Positions 353 to 51,531 of a DNA stretch of 64,000 nt are shown here, in pieces. The position numbers were made by a program, and so were the translations under genes. Position 1 is the first letter of the stretch, and each line of letters starts with the position of its first letter. The notes below the pieces were generated by a model. That model had not been told where the DNA came from, did no database searches, and saw nothing but the letters and a program-made list of their open reading frames with translations. This DNA comes from an uncultured delta proteobacterium (lineage in GTDB: Bacteria; Myxococcota; Myxococcia; Myxococcales; Myxococcaceae): the NCBI GenBank assembly GCA_963776345.1, contig CAVZMH010000020.1:44626-108625 (forward strand). Reading direction: 5' to 3'.

Positions 353-1321
353 ATGCCCGGGCTGGCCTCCATCTCGGTGGACCTGGACGGGCTCGGGCAC
401 TACGCGGCCATCCACGGCCTCGACGCGGGGGAGGTGTCCGCCGAGGCCCGCGCGCTGGTGCACCAGGTCGCGGTGCCGCGCTTCGCCGGGCTCCTCGAGG
501 GCGTGGGCGGACGGGGCACGCTGTTCGTCATCGGCGGCGAGGTGGACGAGGCGGCGCGCGGGCCGCTGGGCCAGGCGCTCCGTGGCGGACACGAGCTGGC
601 GAGCCACAGCCACGCGCACGACTACGCGCTGTCCCGCGCCGCGCCGGAGGACATCGACCGGGACCTCGCCCGGGCCGAGGGGGTGCTCTCCGGGCTGGGC
701 GCGCCCGGGCCGCTCGGGTTCCGCGCGCCCGGGTACACGCTCTCGCCGGCCCTGCTCCAGGCCCTGGCCGCCCGCGGCTACGCCTACGACGCGAGCATCT
801 TCCCCGCCGCGCCGTACTGGGCGGCCAAGGCGCTGACCCTGGGGTGGCTCCGGCTCCGTGGCCGGCGCTCGGCGGCCATCCTCGACAGCCCCCGCGTCTT
901 GCTGGCGCCGCGGCTGCCCTACCGGCCGGACCTCGCGCGGCCCGAGCGGCGGGGGACGGCGCCCCTGCTCGAGCTGCCGATGTCAGTGACGCCGGGGGGA
1001 CGGGTCCCCTTCATCGGGACCTTCGTGGTGCTCGCTCCCTGGCCGATGGTGCGCGGTGCGTACGCCCGGCTCCGGAAGGGGCCGTTCCTCTCGCTCGAGC
1101 TGCACGCGGTGGACCTCCTGGGCCCCGAGGACGGGCTCCCGGCAGCGGTCGGCCGCTCCCAGCCGGACCTCCGGCTCCCCCTGGCGATGAAGCTCGGCCG
1201 GCTCCGCGAGGTGCTGGAGTGGGCGGCGCGGGACTTCGAGCTCGTGCCGCTCCGGGAGGCCGCCCGGTCGCTGGACGGACCGGGCACGTCCCCAGTTCCC
1301 GCGGACGCCGCGCGCAACTAG
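353..1321 (+). CDS. Polysaccharide deacetylase (NodB-fold) family protein
   Basis: 322-aa ORF. SISVDLDG at the N-terminus and a HELASHSHAHD His-cluster are typical of the deacetylase fold. It follows the GT2 gene after 7 nt. Confidence 0.75.
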   Translation: MPGLASISVDLDGLGHYAAIHGLDAGEVSAEARALVHQVAVPRFAGLLEGVGGRGTLFVIGGEVDEAARGPLGQALRGGHELASHSHAHDYALSRAAPEDIDRDLARAEGVLSGLGAPGPLGFRAPGYTLSPALLQALAARGYAYDASIFPAAPYWAAKALTLGWLRLRGRRSAAILDSPRVLLAPRLPYRPDLARPERRGTAPLLELPMSVTPGGRVPFIGTFVVLAPWPMVRGAYARLRKGPFLSLELHAVDLLGPEDGLPAAVGRSQPDLRLPLAMKLGRLREVLEWAARDFELVPLREAARSLDGPGTSPVPADAARN

Positions 1322-1402
1322 GTCAGGGCGGCCGCGCTCGGGGTCCGGGTAGGGTTGGTCTGGCGGGCTGCAGTCGGCGGGGTCACGGCGGCCGCAGTCA
1401 GC
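1322..1402. repeat. Single copy of the GCGGCCGC-CCTGACC intergenic repeat family, in reverse orientation
   Basis: GGTCAGGGCGGCCGC...GGTCACGGCGGCCGCAGTCAGC starts directly after the stop codon. It aligns with the reverse complement of the units at 42940-43341 and 61071-61420. Confidence 0.75.
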
Positions 1403-1419
1403 TAAAAGGGCCCCGGGCC

Positions 1420-2268
1420 ATGTTCGAGCGCTTGAGCGAGGAGACGAGGAAGCGGCTGAAGCGGCTCACCCTGGAGCTGGCCGGGGACCGCGGTCCGGCG
1501 CTCGAGGCGATGGCCCACCACAGCACCGGCGAGTTCGGCGTGGACCCGTTCGGCTTCGACCCGGACTACGCGCTCTCGGCCATCGCGCCCTTCGTTTGGC
1601 TGTACAAGAAGTACTTCCGGGCGGAGACCCACGGCATCGAGCGGGTGCCCTCGGGGCGGGTGTTCCTGGTGGGCAACCACGCCGGGCAGATCCCGATCGA
1701 CGGGGCGATGGTGGGCGTGGCGATGCTCGTCGATCACGACCCGCCGCGGCTGGTGCGGGCGATGACCGAGAAGTGGGCCGCCTCGCTGCCCTACATCTCG
1801 ACGCTGTTCGCCCGGAGCGGGCAGATCGTCGGCACGCCCGAGAACTGCCGTCGCCTCCTCCAGAGGGACGAGGCGGTGATGGTCTTCCCCGAGGGCGTGC
1901 CAGGCATCAGCAAGCTCTGGCCCGAGCGCTACCAGCTCAAGGACTTCGGCCTCGGCTTCATGCGGCTGGCGCTGGAGACGGCCACCCCCATCGTGCCGGT
2001 GGCGATCATCGGCTCGGAGGAGCAGGCCCCCGCGGTGCTGAACCTCCGCTCGGTGGGCAAGCTGATCGGCTTCCCGGCGCTCCCGGTGACGGTGACGCCG
2101 ATTCCGCTCCCCACCAAGTACCGGCTCTACTTCGGGGACCCGCTGGTCTTCTCCGGGAGCGCGGACGACGAGGACGCCGAGCTGGACAAGAAGGTCCGGG
2201 TGGTGAAGACCACCCTGCAGGGACTGCTCCAGCAGGGCCTCGAGGAGCGGCAGCACGTCTTCTGGTGA
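1420..2268 (+). CDS. Lysophospholipid / 1-acylglycerol-3-phosphate acyltransferase family (PlsC-like)
   Basis: ATG at 1420 (MFERLSEE...) lies inside the longer Arg-rich ORF 844..2268. It has an NHAGQIPID (HX4D-type) motif and an FPEGVPG motif. Confidence 0.75.
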   Translation: MFERLSEETRKRLKRLTLELAGDRGPALEAMAHHSTGEFGVDPFGFDPDYALSAIAPFVWLYKKYFRAETHGIERVPSGRVFLVGNHAGQIPIDGAMVGVAMLVDHDPPRLVRAMTEKWAASLPYISTLFARSGQIVGTPENCRRLLQRDEAVMVFPEGVPGISKLWPERYQLKDFGLGFMRLALETATPIVPVAIIGSEEQAPAVLNLRSVGKLIGFPALPVTVTPIPLPTKYRLYFGDPLVFSGSADDEDAELDKKVRVVKTTLQGLLQQGLEERQHVFW

Positions 2269-2278
2269 GCGGCCAGCC

Positions 2279-3226
2279 ATGAGCCCCGAGTCACGACAGG
2301 TGGTGGTGGTCACCGGGCTCAGCGGGAACCTGGGCCGCACCCTGACCAAGCTGCTCCACCGGACCGAGCGCATCGTCGGCCTCGACCGCCGGCCGTTCCC
2401 CGGCGCACCCAAGGACGTGGAGCTCTTCCAGCTCGACCTCCGCAAGAAGAAGGCCGAGGACGTCTTCCGCATCCACGAGGTGAAGGCGGTCATCCACATG
2501 GGGATCATGCACGACCCCCGGATGTCCTCCGAGGAGCACCACTCGTTCAACGTGGTGGGCACCACCCGCGTCCTGGACGCGGTGGCGAAGTACGGGGTGA
2601 AGAAGGTGGTGGTGCTCTCCTCGGCCGACGTCTACGGCCCGAGCCCGGACAACTCGAACTTCCTCACCGAGGACGCGCCCCTGATGGCGGCCTCGCGCTT
2701 CTCGGGCGTCCGCGACCTGATCGAGGTCGACATGCTCGCCCACGGCTTCTTCTGGCGGCACCCGGACATCGAAACGGTCATCCTCCGGCCGGTGCACATC
2801 TTGGGGCCGACCATCCGGAACGCGCCGTCGAACTACCTGCGCCTGCGCCACCCCTGGGTGCTGGCGGGGTTCGACCCGATGCTGCAGCTCATCCACCAGG
2901 AGGACGCCGCGCGGGCGATGGTCGAGGCGCTCAGGCCGGGGCTGAGGGGCGTCTACAACGTCGTTGGTCCGGGTGAGGTGCCGCTGTCCGCCGTGCTCCG
3001 CGAGCTCGGGCGGACGCCCATCCCCGTACCGCATCCCCTCGCCCGCCCGCTGCTGGGCGCGCTGTTCCGCTACCGGCTGGCCAACTTCCCGCCCCCGGAG
3101 CTGGACCACATCCAGTTCCTCTGCATGGTGGACGGCAGCCGCTGGCGCGCCGACGTGGGCTGGGTGCCCCAGCACTCGATGAAGGACACCATCCGCTCGG
3201 TGGACGGCGAGCGGGCCGCGGCGTAG
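2279..3226 (+). CDS. NAD-dependent epimerase/dehydratase (extended SDR)
   Basis: VVVVTGLSGNLG Rossmann motif. 315 aa, with SDR-like layout throughout. Confidence 0.8.
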   Translation: MSPESRQVVVVTGLSGNLGRTLTKLLHRTERIVGLDRRPFPGAPKDVELFQLDLRKKKAEDVFRIHEVKAVIHMGIMHDPRMSSEEHHSFNVVGTTRVLDAVAKYGVKKVVVLSSADVYGPSPDNSNFLTEDAPLMAASRFSGVRDLIEVDMLAHGFFWRHPDIETVILRPVHILGPTIRNAPSNYLRLRHPWVLAGFDPMLQLIHQEDAARAMVEALRPGLRGVYNVVGPGEVPLSAVLRELGRTPIPVPHPLARPLLGALFRYRLANFPPPELDHIQFLCMVDGSRWRADVGWVPQHSMKDTIRSVDGERAAA

Positions 3227-3417
3227 CAGCTCCACGGCCGCCCCGGCGGGGGGGAGAGCGACGCGCGGCCCCGGGTGCGTTGAACGGACTCGTGTCCTGC
3301 CCTGAGGACGTCGGGGTCTTGGGGGCGCGAGCGCTCGCCCACGACCGGGCGGCCTCCGCGATCCGGGGCGCTCCGGGGATGCACGGGTCGCCCGCCGGCC
3401 GAACCGAAGTCGTCGAT

Positions 3418-3472
3418 AGAAAGGAAACTCACCTGTCTATTCCCGCGAAATAGACAGGTGAGTTTCCTTTCT
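3418..3472. repeat. Perfect 24-bp-stem, AT-rich hairpin/palindrome with a 7-nt loop
   Basis: AGAAAGGAAACTCACCTGTCTATT (3418-3441) pairs without mismatch with 3449-3472. Loop is CCCGCGA. A related copy lies at 33437-33492. Confidence 0.9.
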
Positions 3473-3724
3473 TCCTCGTGCCCCTCGGAGCGCCCGGAGC
3501 CACTCCCTCCGTGGCAACCTGCCACCGCCCGGAGCTCGGGCCAGCCACGCGCCCCGGCACCCAGGGTCCGATCTTCCGGGGAAGCCCGGCTCTCCCTGGG
3601 CAGCGCAGGCGCTTCGGCAGTCGTCACGACGACCGCGACAACAATGTCGTGGTTCGGGGCGCGGGTCACTCAGACTCCGAGGAAACTCGGCAGCCAATAT
3701 CCTGAAATCACCCGGGATGCCGCG

Positions 3725-3740
3725 TGGCACCCGCCTTGCT
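3725..3740 (+). promoter_or_regulatory. Sigma-54 (-24/-12) promoter
   Basis: TGGCAC-CCGCC-TTGCT is an exact match to TGGCAC-N5-TTGCW. It lies in a 595-bp non-coding spacer. Confidence 0.55.
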
Positions 3741-3750
3741 CACTCCTGAA

Positions 3751-3828
3751 CCCGTGAGGGCGTCCCATCGGGGGACGCCCGACGCCCACCGTCCCGGCCG
3801 GCCCCGGGGCGGTGGGCGCTTTTATTTG
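3751..3828 (+). ncRNA. Candidate sigma-54-dependent small RNA (~78 nt, two GC hairpins plus a U-tract)
   Basis: The predicted start is ~12 nt after the -12 element. Hairpin 1 is 3758-3766/3772-3780. Hairpin 2 is 3783-3791/3810-3818, followed by CTTTTATTTG. No plus-strand ORF. Confidence 0.4.
3783..3828 (+). terminator. Intrinsic terminator, plus-strand orientation
   Basis: CGCCCACCG...CGGTGGGCG stem with an inner CCCGG/CCGGG extension, then CTTTTATTTG. The minus-strand side has no U-tract. Confidence 0.65.
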
Positions 3829-4241
3829 CGGGGCGCGAGGTCCGGGTAGGGCCCGCCCTGCATCGACTCGAGGCGCCACTGCCCGTCCCGGGCGACCCAG
3901 GTGGCCTTCGCCTCCTGGACCTGCTCCGACGCCGACGGCAAGCGGAGCCACCGCCAGCGGGCGGTCACCACGCTGCGCTCCCCGTCGGCGCTCGGCGTGA
4001 CGTCGAGCAACTCGATGTCGGTGATGCTCAGGTCCGAGGCGTCGCGGGCGCGCGCGGCGAGGAACTCGCTCCGCCGCTCGGGGACCAGCAGCTGGGCCAC
4101 GGCGGCGGACTCGCTCCAGCGGGCCTTCAGCTGGAAGTCCTCGTAAGTGCTCTTGAGTGCGCTCTGCGTGGCCCCCCCTTGGTGACATCCCACGACACCG
4201 AGGAGCAGGCAGGCGAGGAGGGGGCGCGTGGTAGCCTTCAT
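3822..4241 (-). CDS. Small lipoprotein of unknown function
   Basis: MKATTRPLLACLLLGVVGC has a signal peptide and lipobox. It is the internal ATG (4241) of the longer ORF 3822..4868. Confidence 0.75.
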   Translation of the reverse strand: MKATTRPLLACLLLGVVGCHQGGATQSALKSTYEDFQLKARWSESAAVAQLLVPERRSEFLAARARDASDLSITDIELLDVTPSADGERSVVTARWRWLRLPSASEQVQEAKATWVARDGQWRLESMQGGPYPDLAPRK

Positions 4242-4253
4242 CGGCTGACAACG

Positions 4254-7200
4254 ATGCCCGAATCCCTGGTGGAGCGGTACGAGCAGCTCCTCGCCACCAA
4301 TCCCACCTCCACCCTCTTCGTGGAGCTGGCTCGGGTGCTCGTCGAGCAGGGTGAGAACGCCCGCGCGGCCGAGGTGTGCCAGCAGGGGCTCGTTCACCAT
4401 CCGGACAGCATCCACGGGTACGTGCTCTGGGGGAAGGCCCTCATCAGCCTGGGCCGCCCCGCCGAGGCGATGGAGCAGTTCGACCGGGCGGTGGCGGTCG
4501 ACCGGTCCGACCCGCTCGCATACCACCTCATCTCGGAAGTCCTGGTGAGCAAGGGGCTGTACCGCTCGGCGCTGCCGCTGCTCCGCAAGGCGGTGGCCCT
4601 CTCGCCCGGGGACGACGAGGTGAAGACCTGGCTCGAGCAGACCCAAGGGGCGCTCGCCGGCGGCCCGGTCCCCACCGTCCGGCCGGCGGTGCTGGACAAC
4701 CCGCCCGAGCGGCCCCTTCGTCCGCGGGCCAACGGCAGCCCCACCGGGCGCAACGCCGCCGTCCGGTCCACCCGGACCGGGAGCCTGCCGCCGCCGCCCC
4801 CGCCCGAGGCGCTGAGCGAGGCGGCAGGGGAAGACGCCGCTGCCCGAGCGAACGGGGTCGGGTTCCATCCCCGCGGCGGGCGACGGTCCGACGACGCCCG
4901 GTCCGAGCGATTACCCGGCGAGCGCCGTCGCCGCGAGCGAGGCCGGGCCGACCGGGGTGGAGACCGGGCCGCTCGCCGAGCCGAGCCTCCTGGCCGACGT
5001 GCCCGATGCCCCCGCGCCGACGGGCGCCATCCCCGCGGTGAAGCGGCCGCTCGCCACCGGCACCACCGAGGCCATCGCCAAGGAGTACGAGAAGGCGCTC
5101 CGGGCCAAGGTGGCCGAGAAGGCACGAGACAGGAGCTGGATCCAGGTCCACGCCCTCAAGCTCGCCATCGCCACCGTGACGCTGGTGGCCCTGGTCGCGG
5201 GCGGGCTCGTGTACCGGCACACCCGGGCGGTCAACCAGGGCCGGAACCTGGCCGACGCGCTCGCCAGCGCGCGCAAGGCGCTGGCGCTGGACACGGCGGC
5301 GGGCGACCGGGCGGCGCTCGAGTCGCTGGCCCAGGCGCTCCGGATGGAGGAGGACAGCCCCGCGGCCTGGGACCTGACCGCCTACGCCCGCGCGGCGCTG
5401 GCGGACGAGCACGGCGGCACCGCGCAGGACCGCGCCCAGGCCGTGACCGCGCTCGGGCGCCCGAAGGCGGGCTCGAGCCACCCGGGCCTGGTCCTGGTGG
5501 CCCGGGCGATGGCCACGGAGGGCGCCGAGCGGGACGCCGCACGGAAGGCCATCCTCGAGTCGCCGCTGGACCTCTCCGAGGTGCACGACGCGGCGGGCCG
5601 GCTGCTCCTGGCCAAGGGCGACCCCAAGGCCGCGGTGCTCCACTTCAAGCGCGCGCTGGAGCTGAACGCGGGGAACGTCCGGGCCCTGGTGGCGCTCGGC
5701 GACTACTACCGCGAGGCGGGCGACGACGCCGCCGCGCTCACCGTCTACTCCAGCGCCGAGCAGCTCTCGCCGGACCACCCGGGCCGGGCGCTGGGCGAGG
5801 CCGAGAGCCGGCTCGCGCTGGAGCAGGACGTCACCCAGGCCCTGGCCGAGGTGGACAAGCTGGTGCCCGAGTCGCTCACCCCGGAGATGGCCGCCCGGCG
5901 CGCGCTGGACCGCGGGCGGCTGCTCTCGGCCAACGGGGCGCACGAGCAGGCGGTGAAGGTGCTCACCGAGGGCGCCTCCGGCGGGAAGCGGGCCTTCGAC
6001 TTCCAGGTGGCGCTCGGCGACGCGCTCCGGGCGAGCGGTGACCTCACCGCGGCGCAGAAGGCGCTCGAGGCGGCGGTGAAGCAGAGGCCGAAGAGCGAGG
6101 AGGCGAAGGAGGCCCTGGGCCGGGTGCTGCTCGGGCGCGACCGCGAGCGCGAGCTCCTGCAGCGCTTCGCCGACGACGCCGGTCGGCGGATGGCCCTCCT
6201 CCGGGGCGTCGCCTGGGGCCGGCTCCGAGATTGGAAGCGGGCGCGGGCCGAGCTGGCGAGGACCTCGGTCTCGGGGAAGTACCCCATCGAGGCGGTGGCC
6301 TGGCTCGCGCTGGCCGATGCGGCCGAGGGCGAGCCGGACAAGGCGCAGACGGTGCTCGAGCGCACCCTGGGGGCGGCGAAGCGGCCGAGGGCGGACGTGG
6401 CGGTGGCGCTGGGGAAGGTCTACTGGCAGCGCGGCATCCTGGACCGGGCCAAGGCCCAGTTCGAGGGCGCGAGCCGCGACCCGCGCGACTACGAGGGCGC
6501 GTGCGCCCTGGGCCGGCTGCTCTGGGTGTCGGGCTCCCCCGAGCGGGCGGTGGAGCCGCTCCAGCTCTCCATCCAGCGGAACCGGAGCCACGGCGAGAGC
6601 CGGCACGCGCTCGCCCGGGTGTACCTGGCGCTGGCCAAGCCGGCCGAGTCGCTGGCCCAGGCCGAGGCGTGGGCGGCGGAGAACCCCTCCAGCGCCGCCG
6701 CGCACAAGGACGTGGCGCTGGCCCTGGCGCAGGAGGGCAAGTGGAAGGAGTCCGAGACGGCGCTGAACCGCGCGCTGAAGCTCGACCCGCAGGACGCCGA
6801 GTCCCACCGGCTCCGGGCGAGCGTCCTCTTCGCCCGGGGCGACGGGCGCGGCGGCTTCGCGGCGCTGCAGAAGGCGAACACCCTCGCCCCGAAGGACAGC
6901 GAGGTGTTCTGCGCCATCGCACGGGCGTTCGTCCGGCAGGGCAATCTCCAGCAGGCGCAGAAGGCCTACCAGGCGGCGGTGCGCGAGGAGCCGGCCAGCG
7001 TGTGCGGCTTCGCGGGCGACGTGCTGCTCAAGCCGGCCGCGGGCAAGCCGCAGCTCTCGAAGCTCCAGGGCCTGTCGTCGGCGGCGCCGCGGGCGACGGA
7101 TCGCGCCTGGGCAGCGGTCGCCGCGTCGCGGGTGGCGCTGGCGGCGGGCCGGGTGCAGGACGCCAAGCACAGCGCCGAGCTTGCGGTGGAGCTCCAGCCG

Positions 7201-7482
7201 TACCTCTCGGACGCGGCGCTCGCCCAGGGGCTGGTGCTCCGGAAGCTGCGCGACGAGACGAAGGCCCGCGAGCTCCTGGTCAAGGCGGTGCAGCTCGATC
7301 CCTCCGACGGGCCGGCCCGTCTGGCGCTCGCCGACGCGCTCGCCGCCGGGGGTGACACCGACGCTCGCCGGGCGTACGAGGAATACGTGAACTTCACCCG
7401 CCTCGCCGCGAAGTCGCCGGACATGGCCCGGGTCAAGAAGCTGCTGCCGGCCCTCAAGAAGCGGGCGGCCCGGGCGCCGTGA
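4254..7482 (+). pseudogene. Large TPR-repeat membrane protein, reading frame interrupted near 4855 as sequenced
   Basis: The N-terminal TPR part (MPESLVERYEQLL..., frame 0) turns into Arg-rich junk after ~4860. Frame 1 opens after TGA 4813-4815 and carries a P/A/G linker, a TM helix (LAIATVTLVALVAGGLVY) and many TPRs up to 7482. Confidence 0.6.
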
Positions 7483-8248: not shown

Positions 8249-10276
8249 TCAGCCCGCGCTTCCGCCCTCGGCCTTCGGGGCGTGGTCGCGGGCGCCGCGG
8301 CAGATCTCCACCACCTTCGGGCCGAAGCGCTCCCAGCTCGTCGCCCCCGTCCCCTTCACCGCGAGGAAGTCCTCGCGGTTGAGCGGGAGCGCCGTGGCGA
8401 GCGCCTGCAGCGTCTTGTCGTTGAAGAGGATGAACGGCGGCAGGTCCAGGTCGCGCGAGAGGTCGCGGCGGAAGCGGCGCAGCGCCTCGGCGGCCTGGTC
8501 GTTCATCGGGCCCTCGGCGACGCGCTCCTTGGACTTGTAGATGCTCGACTTGGTGGTGGTCCGCGCCGGCGGAGGCTCGACCCGCGTCCGCGTGCCGGAG
8601 CAGACGTCACAGCCGTTGCACTCGAGGTCCCGGGTGTCCTCGCCGAAGTAGTTCAGGACGAAGGCCCGCCGGCAGGTCTTGGCGTAGGCGTAGTCCGTCA
8701 TCCGGCGGAGGAGGAGCAGCGCCCGGCGCTCCTGGCGGCGCACCCTCTCCAGCGAGAGGTCGAGGGCGTGGAATGGCAACCGCTGCAGCGGCCGGATGGC
8801 TCGGCCGGCGAAGGGCTTCCGGACCGAGATGGCCTTCGCCCGCTCCAGCGCCGAGAGCGCCCGCCGCAGGTCCTTGTCCGGAAGCCCCACCCGGGCGCAG
8901 AGGGCCCGGAGCTGGATGGAGAGCGTGCCGTCGCCCGCCTCCGCCTGGAGCGCCTCGAGCAGCGCCTTCGCCGACCGGGCGTGGACGTCCGCCTTCGGGT
9001 CCAGCACCCGGATGCCGTACGCACCGGCGCCCGGGGCCTGCATCTCCAGCAGGCCCTCGCGCTCGAGGATGCGCAGCGCGGCCGAGACCTCGAACTCGCT
9101 CGCCCCCACCGCGCTGGCCAGCGCCTCCTGCCCGCGGGCGAAGACCTCCGCCGTCTGGAGCACGTTCCACACGTCGGCGATGACCGCCTCGGAGGGGTGG
9201 TTGCTCTCGATGAGCCGCTCCTGGGTGAAGACGTCGGCGTGGTTGAAGAGGAGCAGCGCGTGGGCCGGTTTCCCGTCGCGTCCGGCCCGACCCACCTCCT
9301 GGTAGTAGGCCTCCACCGCGCGCGGGATGTTGGCGTGGATGACGAAGCGAATGTCCGGCTTGTCGATGCCCATCCCGAAGGCGTTGGTGGCCACCGCCAC
9401 CGCCGACGGGTCTCCCATGAAGCGGTCCTGCGCCCGGTGCCGCTCCGCCTCGTCCATGCCCGCGTGGTACACGACCGGGTCGTGCCCGCGGAGCCGGAGC
9501 GCGGCCTGCATCGCGTCCGCCTGCTTCCGGGTGGCGCAGTAGACGATGCCGCTCCCGCCCTCGGCGATGAGCCGGGCGCAGGCCGTGCGGCGCTCCTCGT
9601 CCCCCGAGATGCGCAGCACCTCGAGGAAGAGGTTGGGGCGGTCGAACCCGGCGACGAAGACCCGCGGGTCCTTCATCAGGAGGCTCTTGACGATGTCCTC
9701 CCGGACCTCCGGGCTCGCGGTCGCGGTGAGAGCGACCGTCCTGGGCGGGCGAAGCCGCTTCCGGACCTGCCCCAGCAGCGCGTAGTCGGGCCGGAAGTCG
9801 TGCCCCCACTGGCTGATGCAGTGGGCCTCGTCGACGGCGAGGAGCTCGACGCCGACCTCGCCCAGCGCCTCGAGGAAGCTCGAGCTCCGGAAACGCTCGG
9901 GGGCCACGTAGACCAGCCGGTACGCCCCGGCGCGCATCTTCCGGATGCGCTCGGCGCGCTCGAGCTCGGGGACGGTGGAGTTGATGAGCGTCGCCGAGAT
10001 GCCGCGGGCCTCCAGCTGCTCCACCTGGTCCTTCATCAGGGAGATGAGCGGGGAGACGACCAAGGTCAGGCCCTTCAGCATCACCGCCGGCAGCTGGTAG
10101 CAGAGGCTCTTCCCGGCGCCGGTGGGCATCAGCACCACCACGTTGCGTCCGGCGAGCACCGAGTCCACCACCTCGGCCTGGCCCGGCCGGAAGGCGGTGA
10201 GTCCAAACGATTTCTCGAGCTCCGCGCGCGCGTCGTCGTGGAACCGGAGCGGCTCCGTCATGCTCCGCATCTTCAC
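8249..10276 (-). CDS. recQ: ATP-dependent DNA helicase RecQ
   Basis: MPTGAGKSLCYQ (Walker A), VDEAHCISQWGHDFRP, a Cys-rich RQC zinc region and a C-terminal HRDC domain. The GTG start forms a GTGA overlap with the radC stop, with GGAGG 6 nt upstream. An ATG at 10270 is the alternative start. Confidence 0.9.
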   Translation of the reverse strand: MKMRSMTEPLRFHDDARAELEKSFGLTAFRPGQAEVVDSVLAGRNVVVLMPTGAGKSLCYQLPAVMLKGLTLVVSPLISLMKDQVEQLEARGISATLINSTVPELERAERIRKMRAGAYRLVYVAPERFRSSSFLEALGEVGVELLAVDEAHCISQWGHDFRPDYALLGQVRKRLRPPRTVALTATASPEVREDIVKSLLMKDPRVFVAGFDRPNLFLEVLRISGDEERRTACARLIAEGGSGIVYCATRKQADAMQAALRLRGHDPVVYHAGMDEAERHRAQDRFMGDPSAVAVATNAFGMGIDKPDIRFVIHANIPRAVEAYYQEVGRAGRDGKPAHALLLFNHADVFTQERLIESNHPSEAVIADVWNVLQTAEVFARGQEALASAVGASEFEVSAALRILEREGLLEMQAPGAGAYGIRVLDPKADVHARSAKALLEALQAEAGDGTLSIQLRALCARVGLPDKDLRRALSALERAKAISVRKPFAGRAIRPLQRLPFHALDLSLERVRRQERRALLLLRRMTDYAYAKTCRRAFVLNYFGEDTRDLECNGCDVCSGTRTRVEPPPARTTTKSSIYKSKERVAEGPMNDQAAEALRRFRRDLSRDLDLPPFILFNDKTLQALATALPLNREDFLAVKGTGATSWERFGPKVVEICRGARDHAPKAEGGSAG

Positions 10277-10998
10277 TGTTTGCCTCCAGCCGTCAACGCC
10301 TCTCCCGACACGGGCGGGAGCACGTGGAGGAGCCCGGCCCGGGCCAGCGAGACGTACCGCCCGGCTCCGACCACCAGGTGGTCGAGGACGCGGAGGTGGA
10401 AAATTCTGGCACCAGCCTGCAGCTCGCGGGTCAGAGCCAGGTCGGCCTCGGAGGGCTCGGGGTCTCCCGACGGATGGTTGTGGGCGAAGATGACCGCGGT
10501 GGCCCGCGCGCCGAGCGCCGCCCGGAAGACCTCGCGGGGGTCCACGGTGCAGGCGTCCGTCGTCCCCTCCGCCACCCGCGCGTCCGCCAGCAGCACGTTC
10601 CGGGTGTTGAACGACAGGACGTGGAACACCTCGCGCCGGAGCAGCGCGATGCGGGGCGCGAGGTAGCGGTACACCTCGCCGGCGGTGCGGAGCCGGGGCC
10701 GGCCGTCCGGGGCCAGGTGGGCGCGCCGGGCGAGCTCGAGCGCGGCCAGCACCTGCGCGGCGCGCTCGCGTCCGAGGCCCGCCGCGCTGCACAGCTCCGA
10801 GGGCTCCATGCTCGCCAGCGCCCGGAGCCCGCCCGCGGCGGCGAGCAGCGACTCGCCCAGGCCGCGCACGGTGCGGCTCTTGCCGCCGAAGAGCAGGCCG
10901 AGGAGCTCGGCGTCGTCCAGCGCCCCCGGCGCCCGGAGCAGACGCTCGCGCAGCGCCTGCACCGTTCCGTCCTCGGTCTCGGAAGCCCCCCGCTCCAC
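10273..10998 (-). CDS. radC: RadC-like JAB/MPN domain protein
   Basis: HNHPSGDPEPS JAMM motif. N-terminal helix-hairpin-helix-like region. Confidence 0.85.
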   Translation of the reverse strand: MERGASETEDGTVQALRERLLRAPGALDDAELLGLLFGGKSRTVRGLGESLLAAAGGLRALASMEPSELCSAAGLGRERAAQVLAALELARRAHLAPDGRPRLRTAGEVYRYLAPRIALLRREVFHVLSFNTRNVLLADARVAEGTTDACTVDPREVFRAALGARATAVIFAHNHPSGDPEPSEADLALTRELQAGARIFHLRVLDHLVVGAGRYVSLARAGLLHVLPPVSGEALTAGGKQ

Positions 10999-11085
10999 GG
11001 TCCCGGAAGGGGAGCAAGCGACGTGCCCGGGGCCCCCTGTGAACGAAGGTTCAGCGCGCCGTCCGGAGTGCCGGCCGCGAGGGTC

Positions 11086-50944: not shown

Positions 50945-51531
50945 TGACCCGCCGGGCATTCACCTTGCTCGAGGCGATGACCACCTGCGCGATCATCGCC
51001 GTCCTGGCCGCCCTGGCGATGGAGAGCTGGGATTCGGCCATCGCCCGGGCGCGGGCCAACGACGCGGTGATGGGCGTCTACGGACAGCTGCTCGCGGCAC
51101 GGAAGATCGCCCGCACGCACAACCAGCCGGTGCGGCTGGCGATGGTGCCGGACGGGGGCGTCACCCTCGCCCGCTGGGAGCGGCTCCCGTGTGACAACGA
51201 GGTCTTCGGGCTCGGCTGCCCCTCCGCCGCCTGCGCCACCACCGACGCCTGCGGCGGAGGCTCGTGCCCCTGCCGGGACACGGGCGACTGGGTGACGGTG
51301 CCGTCCACCGTGGACCTCAGCGCCTGGGCGGGTCTGTGCTTCCGGGGCGGCACCGGTCAGGCGGTGCCCCGGGTGGCGGGGGTGGGCGACTGTCTGGCGC
51401 CGCCCCCTGCCGGCGCGCTCGGCCTCCGGGCCGGCATCGCCCATCAGAACGACCAGCAGCTGCTGCTCGAGCCGCTGAGCGGGCAGCCGAGGCTGCTGTC
51501 CTGCAGCACGGGGGACGCCGGCTGCAACTGA
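50944..51531 (+). CDS. Type IV minor pilin (FimT/GspH-like)
   Basis: Prepilin leader RRAFTLLEAMTTCAIIAVLAALA. TGATG overlap. Cys-rich C-terminus. Confidence 0.7.
   Translation: MTRRAFTLLEAMTTCAIIAVLAALAMESWDSAIARARANDAVMGVYGQLLAARKIARTHNQPVRLAMVPDGGVTLARWERLPCDNEVFGLGCPSAACATTDACGGGSCPCRDTGDWVTVPSTVDLSAWAGLCFRGGTGQAVPRVAGVGDCLAPPPAGALGLRAGIAHQNDQQLLLEPLSGQPRLLSCSTGDAGCN

Follow-up and report, generated by a model that had tools for sequence, protein, structure and literature searches.

A conserved two-hairpin RNA behind a predicted sigma-54 promoter: a probable new family of enhancer-dependent small RNAs in myxobacteria

The stretch of DNA analyzed here, 64,000 nucleotides of contig CAVZMH010000020.1 from an uncultured delta proteobacterium of the family Myxococcaceae (hereafter the window), very probably contains a complete small RNA (sRNA) gene at positions 3632-3828, with a predicted transcript of about 77 nt that forms two adjacent hairpins. 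The locus is with high confidence a genuine sigma-54-type sRNA gene; an enhancer, a promoter, a short leader of fixed length, a covarying RNA and a one-sided terminator are all conserved across genera, and we infer from this that the gene is transcribed independently. The initial annotation had proposed an orphan sigma-54-type sRNA of about 78 nt at this position, a proposal for which both the conservation of the promoter and the covariation of the stems argue; the upstream enhancer palindrome, the invariant loops and the tandem multi-module forms in Myxococcus were found beyond it. The predicted RNA falls into a known class, the enhancer-dependent sigma-54 sRNAs, and its placement there as a new family is well supported. 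Its transcription, its dependence on sigma-54 and an activator, its 5' and 3' ends, its action in trans and its mode of pairing are all predictions drawn from sequence comparison. The sRNA gene and the loop-pairing mechanism set out below, when combined into one blended estimate, are reasonably probable.

The hallmark of a sigma-54 promoter is GG-N10-GC, within the consensus TGGCAC-N5-TTGCW, and transcription from such a promoter needs RpoN and ATP hydrolysis by a cognate activator. In Myxococcus xanthus, rpoN is an essential gene. The promoter in the window has GG at -24 and GC at -12 in the GG-N10-GC arrangement. Its motif had been called exact from the start, and a search for TGGCAC-N5-TTGCW bore this out with a single occurrence in the 64-kb window, compared with 0.01 expected from shuffles. 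The palindrome upstream has its core, GACA-N4-TGTC, at 3636-3649, which is 89 bp 5' of the promoter GG, and the longer form CGACA-N4-TGTCG is found once in the window against an expectation of 0.09. In sequence, the palindrome agrees with the inverted repeats expected of an enhancer some 80-150 bp upstream. An inverted repeat at this spacing from the promoter is the classical enhancer layout for a sigma-54 activator, for which the palindrome is a candidate site.

The predicted start of the RNA follows from the usual spacing of sigma-54 promoters (Table 1). Both hairpins of the initial annotation were recovered: the 9-bp hairpin exactly as described and the long hairpin, given as 3783-3791/3810-3818 with an inner extension, as a 15-bp stem. 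The leader is variable among loci, except for GU-N-A directly 5' of hairpin A. When folded, positions 3750-3828 gave -55.8 kcal/mol (z = -4.8), a value that 200 shuffles all failed to reach. In a terminator scan, hairpin B qualified as an intrinsic terminator in the plus-strand direction alone; in the minus-strand direction TCGGGCG comes next, and that strand consequently has no U-tract, as had been claimed. Every locus has a T-tract behind its last module. The stop codon TAA of the convergent lipoprotein gene (TTA at 3822-3824) does lie within the T-tract, and the nearest upstream plus-strand gene, said to end 500 bp away, is an epimerase gene whose stop at 3226 is 499 bp ahead of the promoter. 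The statement that the unit contains no plus-strand open reading frame (ORF) needs to be amended, since a mechanical ORF at 3724-3849 (GTG start, 41 aa) overlaps it. This ORF is not a gene, because its start lies inside the promoter, the only AU-containing triplet that is kept is AUN with N being any base, and the changes in the stems are compensatory and not synonymous. A hidden small ORF was likewise rejected: the AUG of loop A in module 1 of M. xanthus opens a 20-codon frame, but its third base takes all four identities across the family.

Table 1. Coordinates of the predicted sRNA gene and of its neighbors in the window.
Feature	Position	Strand	Description
Candidate upstream activating sequence	3632-3653		imperfect palindrome ACCGCGACA-ACAA-TGTCGTGGT, core CGACA-N4-TGTCG
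Predicted sigma-54 promoter	3725-3740	+	TGGCAC (3725-3730), spacer CCGCC (N5), TTGCT (3736-3740)
Predicted transcription start	~3750-3752	+	11-13 nt past the -12 GC
Unpaired 5' leader	3750-3757	+	short (~8 nt), 3' end GUGA
Hairpin A	3758-3780	+	9-bp stem, GGGCGTCCC (3758-3766) / GGGACGCCC (3772-3780), 5-nt loop AUCGG
Linker GA	3781-3782	+	G nearly invariant, A the majority base (79-module alignment)
Hairpin B / terminator stem	3783-3818	+	3783-3797/3804-3818, 15 bp, 13 G-C, hexaloop CCGGCC
T-tract CTTTTATTTG	3819-3828	+	expected RNA 3' end; overlaps the stop codon of the convergent gene
NAD-dependent epimerase/SDR gene	2279-3226	+	Pfam PF01370; last of a deacetylase-acyltransferase-epimerase cluster
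Convergent lipoprotein gene	3822-4241	-	139 aa, lipobox LLGVVGC; tail-to-tail with the RNA
Large TPR-protein gene	starts 4254	+	

The comparison set comprised about 190 loci: 80 from genomes, 99 on metagenome contigs and a few looked up in named complete genomes. The genome loci, each from a distinct species, came from a search with the epimerase protein, which reached Myxococcus, Corallococcus, Pyxidicoccus, Hyalangium, Archangium, Vitiosangium and many metagenome-assembled genomes of the Myxococcaceae; the epimerases of the closest relatives in this set are 93-97% identical. The second search was unbiased and used only an RNA-derived pattern, CCATNGGGG...CGGCCGGCCCCG, against metagenome contigs, from which the 99 contigs were obtained. 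Nearly all of these loci carry the enhancer (GACA-N4-TGTC), a GG-N10-GC promoter and a two-hairpin module of about 62 nt. An exact TGGCAC-N5-TTGC was present at the RNA locus in 56 of the 80 genome loci, once per locus and always on the plus strand, about 100-200 nt from the epimerase stop and up to about 880 nt from it in insertion-bearing loci. Most of the remaining genome loci with enough sequence have GGCAT-N5-TTGC at the same place; wherever the promoter was found among the related loci, GG-N10-GC was retained, and both hairpins were present 3' of it in every genome locus. Among the motif-only metagenome contigs, 93 of 99 have the promoter at the equivalent position; three of the other six are too short upstream, and L099, L102 and L116 make up the rest. 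Overall, the promoter occupies the same place and orientation in essentially all related loci with enough upstream sequence, in keeping with the initial annotation. In most related loci the GACA-N4-TGTC repeat was found at -89 (the clade of the window) or about -100 (outside it); a second copy, some 46 bp farther upstream at about -147 or -157, is present in many loci. Its most frequent form is CTGACA-N4-TGTCAG, and the GACA-N4-TGTC motif is usually unique within each locus of about 9 kb. The intergenic DNA around the enhancer, the promoter and the RNA is otherwise poorly conserved among loci.

Several observations were made on the DNA near the enhancer and on other promoter-like sites. An insertion of about 390 nt (window 3240-3630), which sits between the epimerase stop and the enhancer and leaves the enhancer, the promoter and the RNA intact, is common to the window, L002 and L003 and is not in the aligned close relatives L001, L007 and L009. 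It consists of nested inverted repeats (core hairpin 3418-3472) around a perfect 24-bp palindrome that is comparatively AT-rich; its central arms are wholly different among the window, L002 and L003, yet self-complementary in each. The insertion resembles a long-hairpin element or a miniature inverted-repeat transposable element (MITE); possibly it serves the epimerase operon as a terminator. A second sigma-54-like element, GGGCACGTCGCTTGCT, was noted on the minus strand at 11013-11028 in the intergenic gap just 5' of the minus-strand ORF 10273-10998, and may be a real sigma-54 promoter that serves a protein-coding gene. A match to GGCAT-N5-TTGCT at 50955-50969 was rejected as a chance look-alike, as it encodes the prepilin N-terminal motif (MTRRAFTLLEAMTT...) in a pilin-like coding sequence.

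To describe the structure, 79 distinct modules were aligned with zero gaps. In the two-hairpin structure 95.6% of the cells pair, compared with 39-59% in controls with the 3' partners shifted by 1-3 columns. Changes on both sides were seen in 13 of the 24 pairs (170 cells), and none of 500 column shuffles matched the observed values. Both hairpins contribute, hairpin A with changes on both sides in five of nine pairs (94.7% of cells paired) and hairpin B in eight of 15 (96.2%). RNAalifold independently recovered the two hairpins, with compensatory changes in 11 of 22 pairs, and left unpaired the recurrent internal mismatches 18:34 and 49:66, the latter, in hairpin B, being unpaired in 35 of the 79 sequences. 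Compensatory base changes across homologues, the mark of a structured RNA, are thus present, and the stems of the initial annotation do covary. The apical CCAUNGGGG of hairpin A is invariant across the family, with a loop AUNGG in which N may be any of the four bases, as are the apical CGGCCGGCCCCG and the basal CGCCC/GGGCG of hairpin B. This pattern of conservation is inverted relative to that of an ordinary terminator: the apical parts are fixed, and variation, with compensation, is found in the lower stems. The module alignment showed no alternative (antiterminator) pairing that is conserved, and the 5'-GGGCG/CGCCC complementarity of the window is not retained in other clades.

A covariance model built from the module alignment was run on the window and on the named complete genomes. 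It identified one copy in the window (94.3 bits) and copies of 90-94 bits in M. xanthus DK1622, Stigmatella aurantiaca DW4/3-1, Cystobacter fuscus and Melittangium/Archangium primigenium; the RNA is a conserved family of the Myxococcus-Archangium-Cystobacter-Stigmatella group. Two architectures were distinguished. In the short form, to which the window belongs, the distance from the promoter GG to the loop of hairpin B is fixed at 70-72 nt in all loci, and hence the leader is only about 8 nt. The long form, found in Myxococcus, Corallococcus, Pyxidicoccus and part of Archangium, has an extra 5' hairpin, the stem of which covaries too. In Myxococcus and Pyxidicoccus, two or three modules follow one promoter head to tail with a period of 71-72 nt; the internal modules have weakened T-runs (UUUCUUGUA) and the last has the full T-tract. 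A single module is the commonest state (147 of 164 loci) and is also that of the window organism. Three modules were found in L041 (5170-5402), L030 (5196-5427), L034 (5168-5400) and L134, which include Myxococcus qinghaiensis, Pyxidicoccus caerfyrddinensis and others. M. xanthus has two, so that copy number shifts between close species. We propose that the two-hairpin module of about 62 nt is the functional unit. On the plus strand of DK1622 (CP000113.1), the enhancers are at 2,282,927-942 and 2,282,972-987 and the promoter is at 2,283,084-098; the RNA is predicted to start at about 2,283,109 and to end at about 2,283,230 and 2,283,305, for sizes of about 120 and 197 nt.

Two side observations concern these multi-hairpin loci. 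The loop of the long-form 5' hairpin (L024 5135-5165 and equivalents) has GGGCC in Myxococcus, Corallococcus and Archangium, extended to GGGCCGG in Corallococcus, and is not found in Hyalangium-type sequences. It is complementary to the invariant loop B (CCGGCCC); the two could make an intramolecular loop-loop contact or the 5' loop could be a target mimic, although a GC 5-mer is weak evidence. The record of L034 (BNCN01000011.1), labelled 'Comamonas sp. KCTC 72670 / JC664' together with protein P0130, has a Myxococcus-type locus with a three-module RNA and proteins that cluster with Myxococcus; this genome is probably mislabelled.

With Rfam 15, the window and eight related loci gave no match at the gathering threshold, the best sub-threshold match being ncS035 (19.5 bits against a threshold of 79). 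In the searchable literature, no relevant paper on the invariant loop sequence was found, and Pxr is the only functionally characterized myxobacterial sRNA. Pxr of M. xanthus and other Cystobacterineae has a predicted sigma-54 promoter and lies beside the gene of an NtrC-like regulator (PMC5684412, PMC5568312). It shares with the RNA described here the lineage, a similar taxonomic range, a predicted sigma-54 promoter preceded by an enhancer-binding region, a small multi-hairpin form ending in a terminator, and tandem duplication in some genera (PMC5684412, PMC5568312). The initial annotation had suggested an analogous yet different molecule, and the comparison agrees with it in locus and in sequence. 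The pxr gene is located between pxrR/nla19 (Mxan_1078) and Mxan_1079/1080, beside the activator gene (PMC5684412, PMC5568312), whereas the RNA of the window family follows an epimerase gene (near 2.283 Mb in DK1622) and lacks an activator gene in its vicinity. Pxr is 108 nt long and forms three stem-loops: SL1 and SL2 are conserved, whereas SL3, the terminator, varies apart from an 8-bp conserved segment. In the window family, conservation instead falls on the two 3' hairpins, the terminator loop among them, and not all members have the 5' hairpin. The pxr paralogs of Cystobacter each have their own promoter, unlike the several modules behind one promoter seen here. Identity with Pxr was rejected on account of the different neighbors and of an alignment score within the range of shuffles, the latter covering the 3' 66 nt of Pxr as reconstructed from published primers. 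The candidate sRNAs of the TRIC-seq preprint were also set aside as probably different loci, at about 66% and 30% of the chromosome (estimated by tag arithmetic) versus 25% for the DK1622 copy. It is possible that the RNA has been sighted before as an anonymous DK1622 transcript.

Outside the myxobacteria, the closest parallel in organization is NrsZ of Pseudomonas, which depends on sigma-54 and NtrC, consists of one to six repeated stem-loop modules and acts via a conserved loop (PMC4253122). The two RNAs have in common a sigma-54 promoter, a module number that varies by species and a conserved loop motif; a single NrsZ module is sufficient, and kissing-loop action has been proposed for it (PMC4253122). 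The sequences are however unrelated, the NrsZ loop motif ACAGGCAG is not in the window-family RNA, and nrsZ lies beside ntrC. In addition, NrsZ modules are parted by spacer hairpins and released by processing, whereas the modules of the window family abut and each has a terminator-like hairpin. The RNA is accordingly not an NrsZ; only the modular principle is common to both, and that only in Myxococcus and Pyxidicoccus. GlmY/GlmZ (GlrR/QseF) and Qrr1-5 (LuxO) are likewise small RNAs from a -24/-12 promoter with an activator on upstream repeats; GlmY is cited in PMC3162934. The GlrR site is TGTC-N10-GACA, and the Qrr1-5 RNAs are under the control of LuxO. These RNAs differ from the window family in lineage, sequence and structure, and their Rfam models do not match; the GlrR site also has the opposite half-site arrangement and a different spacing from the GACA-N4-TGTC of the window. 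CsrB, RsmY and RsmZ resemble the family in their repeated hairpin units, conserved loops and variable unit number, but GGA loops are lacking in the window family, most genomes have one to three units and not many, and there is no Rfam match. An ANTAR leader has two short hairpins with hexaloops (A1 and G4 conserved), and its second hairpin competes with a terminator farther downstream. An antiterminator leader of this type was rejected because of the 5-nt loop A, because the terminator here is hairpin B itself and because no conserved alternative pairing was found. Also rejected were a type III toxin-antitoxin (ToxI-like) system, in view of the single copy in most genomes and the convergent downstream gene, and a repeated or mobile element, either a repetitive extragenic palindrome (REP) or a MITE, in view of the one copy in the window and the synteny of all 99 motif-only contigs.

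On the basis of these features we propose the following mode of action. A bacterial enhancer-binding protein, encoded elsewhere in the genome, would bind the inverted repeat at 3632-3653 and activate sigma-54 RNA polymerase at the -24/-12 promoter at 3725-3740; transcription would start near 3750 and stop at hairpin B and its U-tract near 3826, resulting in an RNA of about 77 nt. This RNA would act in trans as a riboregulator, with the invariant apical loops CCAUNGGGG and C-rich CGGCCGGCCCCG as its recognition surfaces. The likeliest mode would be loop (kissing) pairing with G-rich mRNA segments close to ribosome-binding sites, for which loop B is the best candidate. M. xanthus has been reported to be without Hfq, and its known sRNA touches mRNAs near Shine-Dalgarno sequences (preprint 10.1101/2025.09.11.675593). 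Loop pairing in trans is favored because the loops are invariant, Hfq is reportedly lacking and NrsZ offers a precedent; we rate this mechanism at a little under an even chance.

A number of points weigh against the proposal of a trans-acting sRNA under its own sigma-54 promoter. The unpaired stretches are short, consisting of loops of 5 and 6 nt and a variable leader of about 8 nt, and offer little for a classical seed. Invariant loops on adjacent hairpins and tandem multiplication fit protein binding nearly as well. A search for the GAFTGA signature of sigma-54 activators revealed no activator gene in the 64-kb window or in 189 related loci (1.2 Mb). All of the roughly 190 loci share one synteny, which leaves room for a role in cis, and in most loci no separate terminator is obvious for the epimerase operon, so that the RNA could arise in part as the 3' untranslated region (3' UTR) of that operon. 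Some of the RNA may come from read-through of the epimerase operon, which would however not be its sole source, because the promoter and the enhancer are conserved.

The fit to protein binding raises the alternative of a decoy, in which a protein would bind the two invariant loops of each module and, as in CsrB or RsmY/Z, more modules in tandem would mean more sites. The clustering of invariant positions in the loops and closing pairs of both hairpins over covarying stems is in line with such a role, as are the recurrent mismatch 49:66 in hairpin B, the presence of one to three modules per transcript and the very short single-stranded regions. Yet neither loop A (AUNGG) nor loop B (CCGGCC) contains a GGA of the CsrA/RsmA type, no candidate gene for the binding protein lies nearby, and the one module of most loci would make a weak sponge; we consider the decoy unlikely.

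A cis role on the neighboring genes is a less probable alternative still. The RNA could be a leader with occasional read-through of the terminator, from the sigma-54 promoter into the TPR gene at 4254 and antisense over the lipoprotein gene, or its convergent overlap could control the 3' end of the lipoprotein mRNA. Synteny speaks for it: the order epimerase, palindrome, sigma-54 promoter, RNA, lipoprotein and TPR gene was kept in every motif-only contig with enough flank, none of the 99 had the RNA in a different genomic context, and the epimerase gene kept its place in the related loci with enough sequence. In 157 of 164 loci, the stop of the convergent ORF lies 3-86 nt (median 13) beyond hairpin B, which in the window is the only nearby 3' structure of the lipoprotein gene. 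The start codons of the lipoprotein and TPR genes are only 12 nt apart, which means that the TPR promoter must be within or beyond the lipoprotein gene, and the original DK1622 annotation stretches the TPR ORF up to the RNA. Against this, the terminator is very strong (15 bp, 13 G-C, U-tract) and is repeated two or three times in Myxococcus, which would all but abolish read-through. Moreover, no conserved antiterminator pairing was found, the 5'-GGGCG/CGCCC complementarity of the window is lost in other clades, and a pure terminator role leaves the invariance of the loops unexplained.

Very improbable is the idea that the hairpins are only a bidirectional terminator that the epimerase operon and the lipoprotein gene share, with the RNA a functionless 3'-UTR remnant and the promoter-like element inactive; the absence of another terminator after the epimerase gene in most loci and the closeness of hairpin B to the convergent stop codon fit it, but an idle promoter and palindrome would not persist at fixed spacing across families while the flanks diverge and gain an insertion of about 390 nt, invariant loops and a second upstream hairpin are not normal for terminators, and the U-tract is on one strand only.

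The genes around the locus were inspected as well. The lipoprotein had no Pfam match, and the well-known genes near the loci are all housekeeping (trxB, metH and a liv-type transporter). A conserved cluster upstream (L081 1-3924; window 353-3226) encodes an amine-oxidase/phytoene-desaturase-like protein, a family-2 glycosyltransferase, a polysaccharide deacetylase, an acyltransferase and the epimerase, and looks like a modification pathway of the glycolipid or carotenoid-glycoside type. The TPR gene (4254-7482) seems to switch frame within 4700-4957, a low-complexity stretch with a GC content of 0.8 or more: its N-terminal part shares the frame of 4254, unlike the strongly coding region at 4957-7482 (GC at third codon positions, 0.98), which uses another. 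This may reflect a frameshift or an assembly error, or two separate genes; in relatives the TPR protein is called as one protein of 1,038-1,426 aa. The GenBank annotation of DK1622 (L183, CP000113.1 2,281,805-2,285,257) has a TPR ORF of 1,426 aa that spans the opposite-strand lipoprotein gene of 150 aa and reaches nearly to the RNA terminator, and other records call a protein of 1,240 aa and the lipoprotein. Since the DK1622 call reaches the RNA, older promoter surveys may have credited the sigma-54 promoter to the TPR gene.

A bolder proposal, and a doubtful one, is that the RNA is a second, uncharacterized master switch of the myxobacteria beside Pxr, a modular and loop-presenting RNA under an orphan enhancer-binding protein, which would act in an unusual mode (GC-rich kissing-loop capture of mRNA or titration of an RNA-binding protein) on a lineage-specific trait such as development, predation or envelope remodelling. 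About 53 sigma-54 activators have been reported in M. xanthus (PMC3162934), most of which are without known direct targets. The locus would be a second family of myxobacterial sRNAs with a predicted sigma-54 promoter, similar in breadth to Pxr, and the enhancer motif CTGACA-N4-TGTCAG could be used to trace its activator and the rest of the regulon of that activator. The invariant loops over covarying stems, together with the variable number of modules, amount to a defined hypothesis on which nucleotides bear the function, and the exact address in DK1622 makes the prediction directly testable in a genetically tractable strain.

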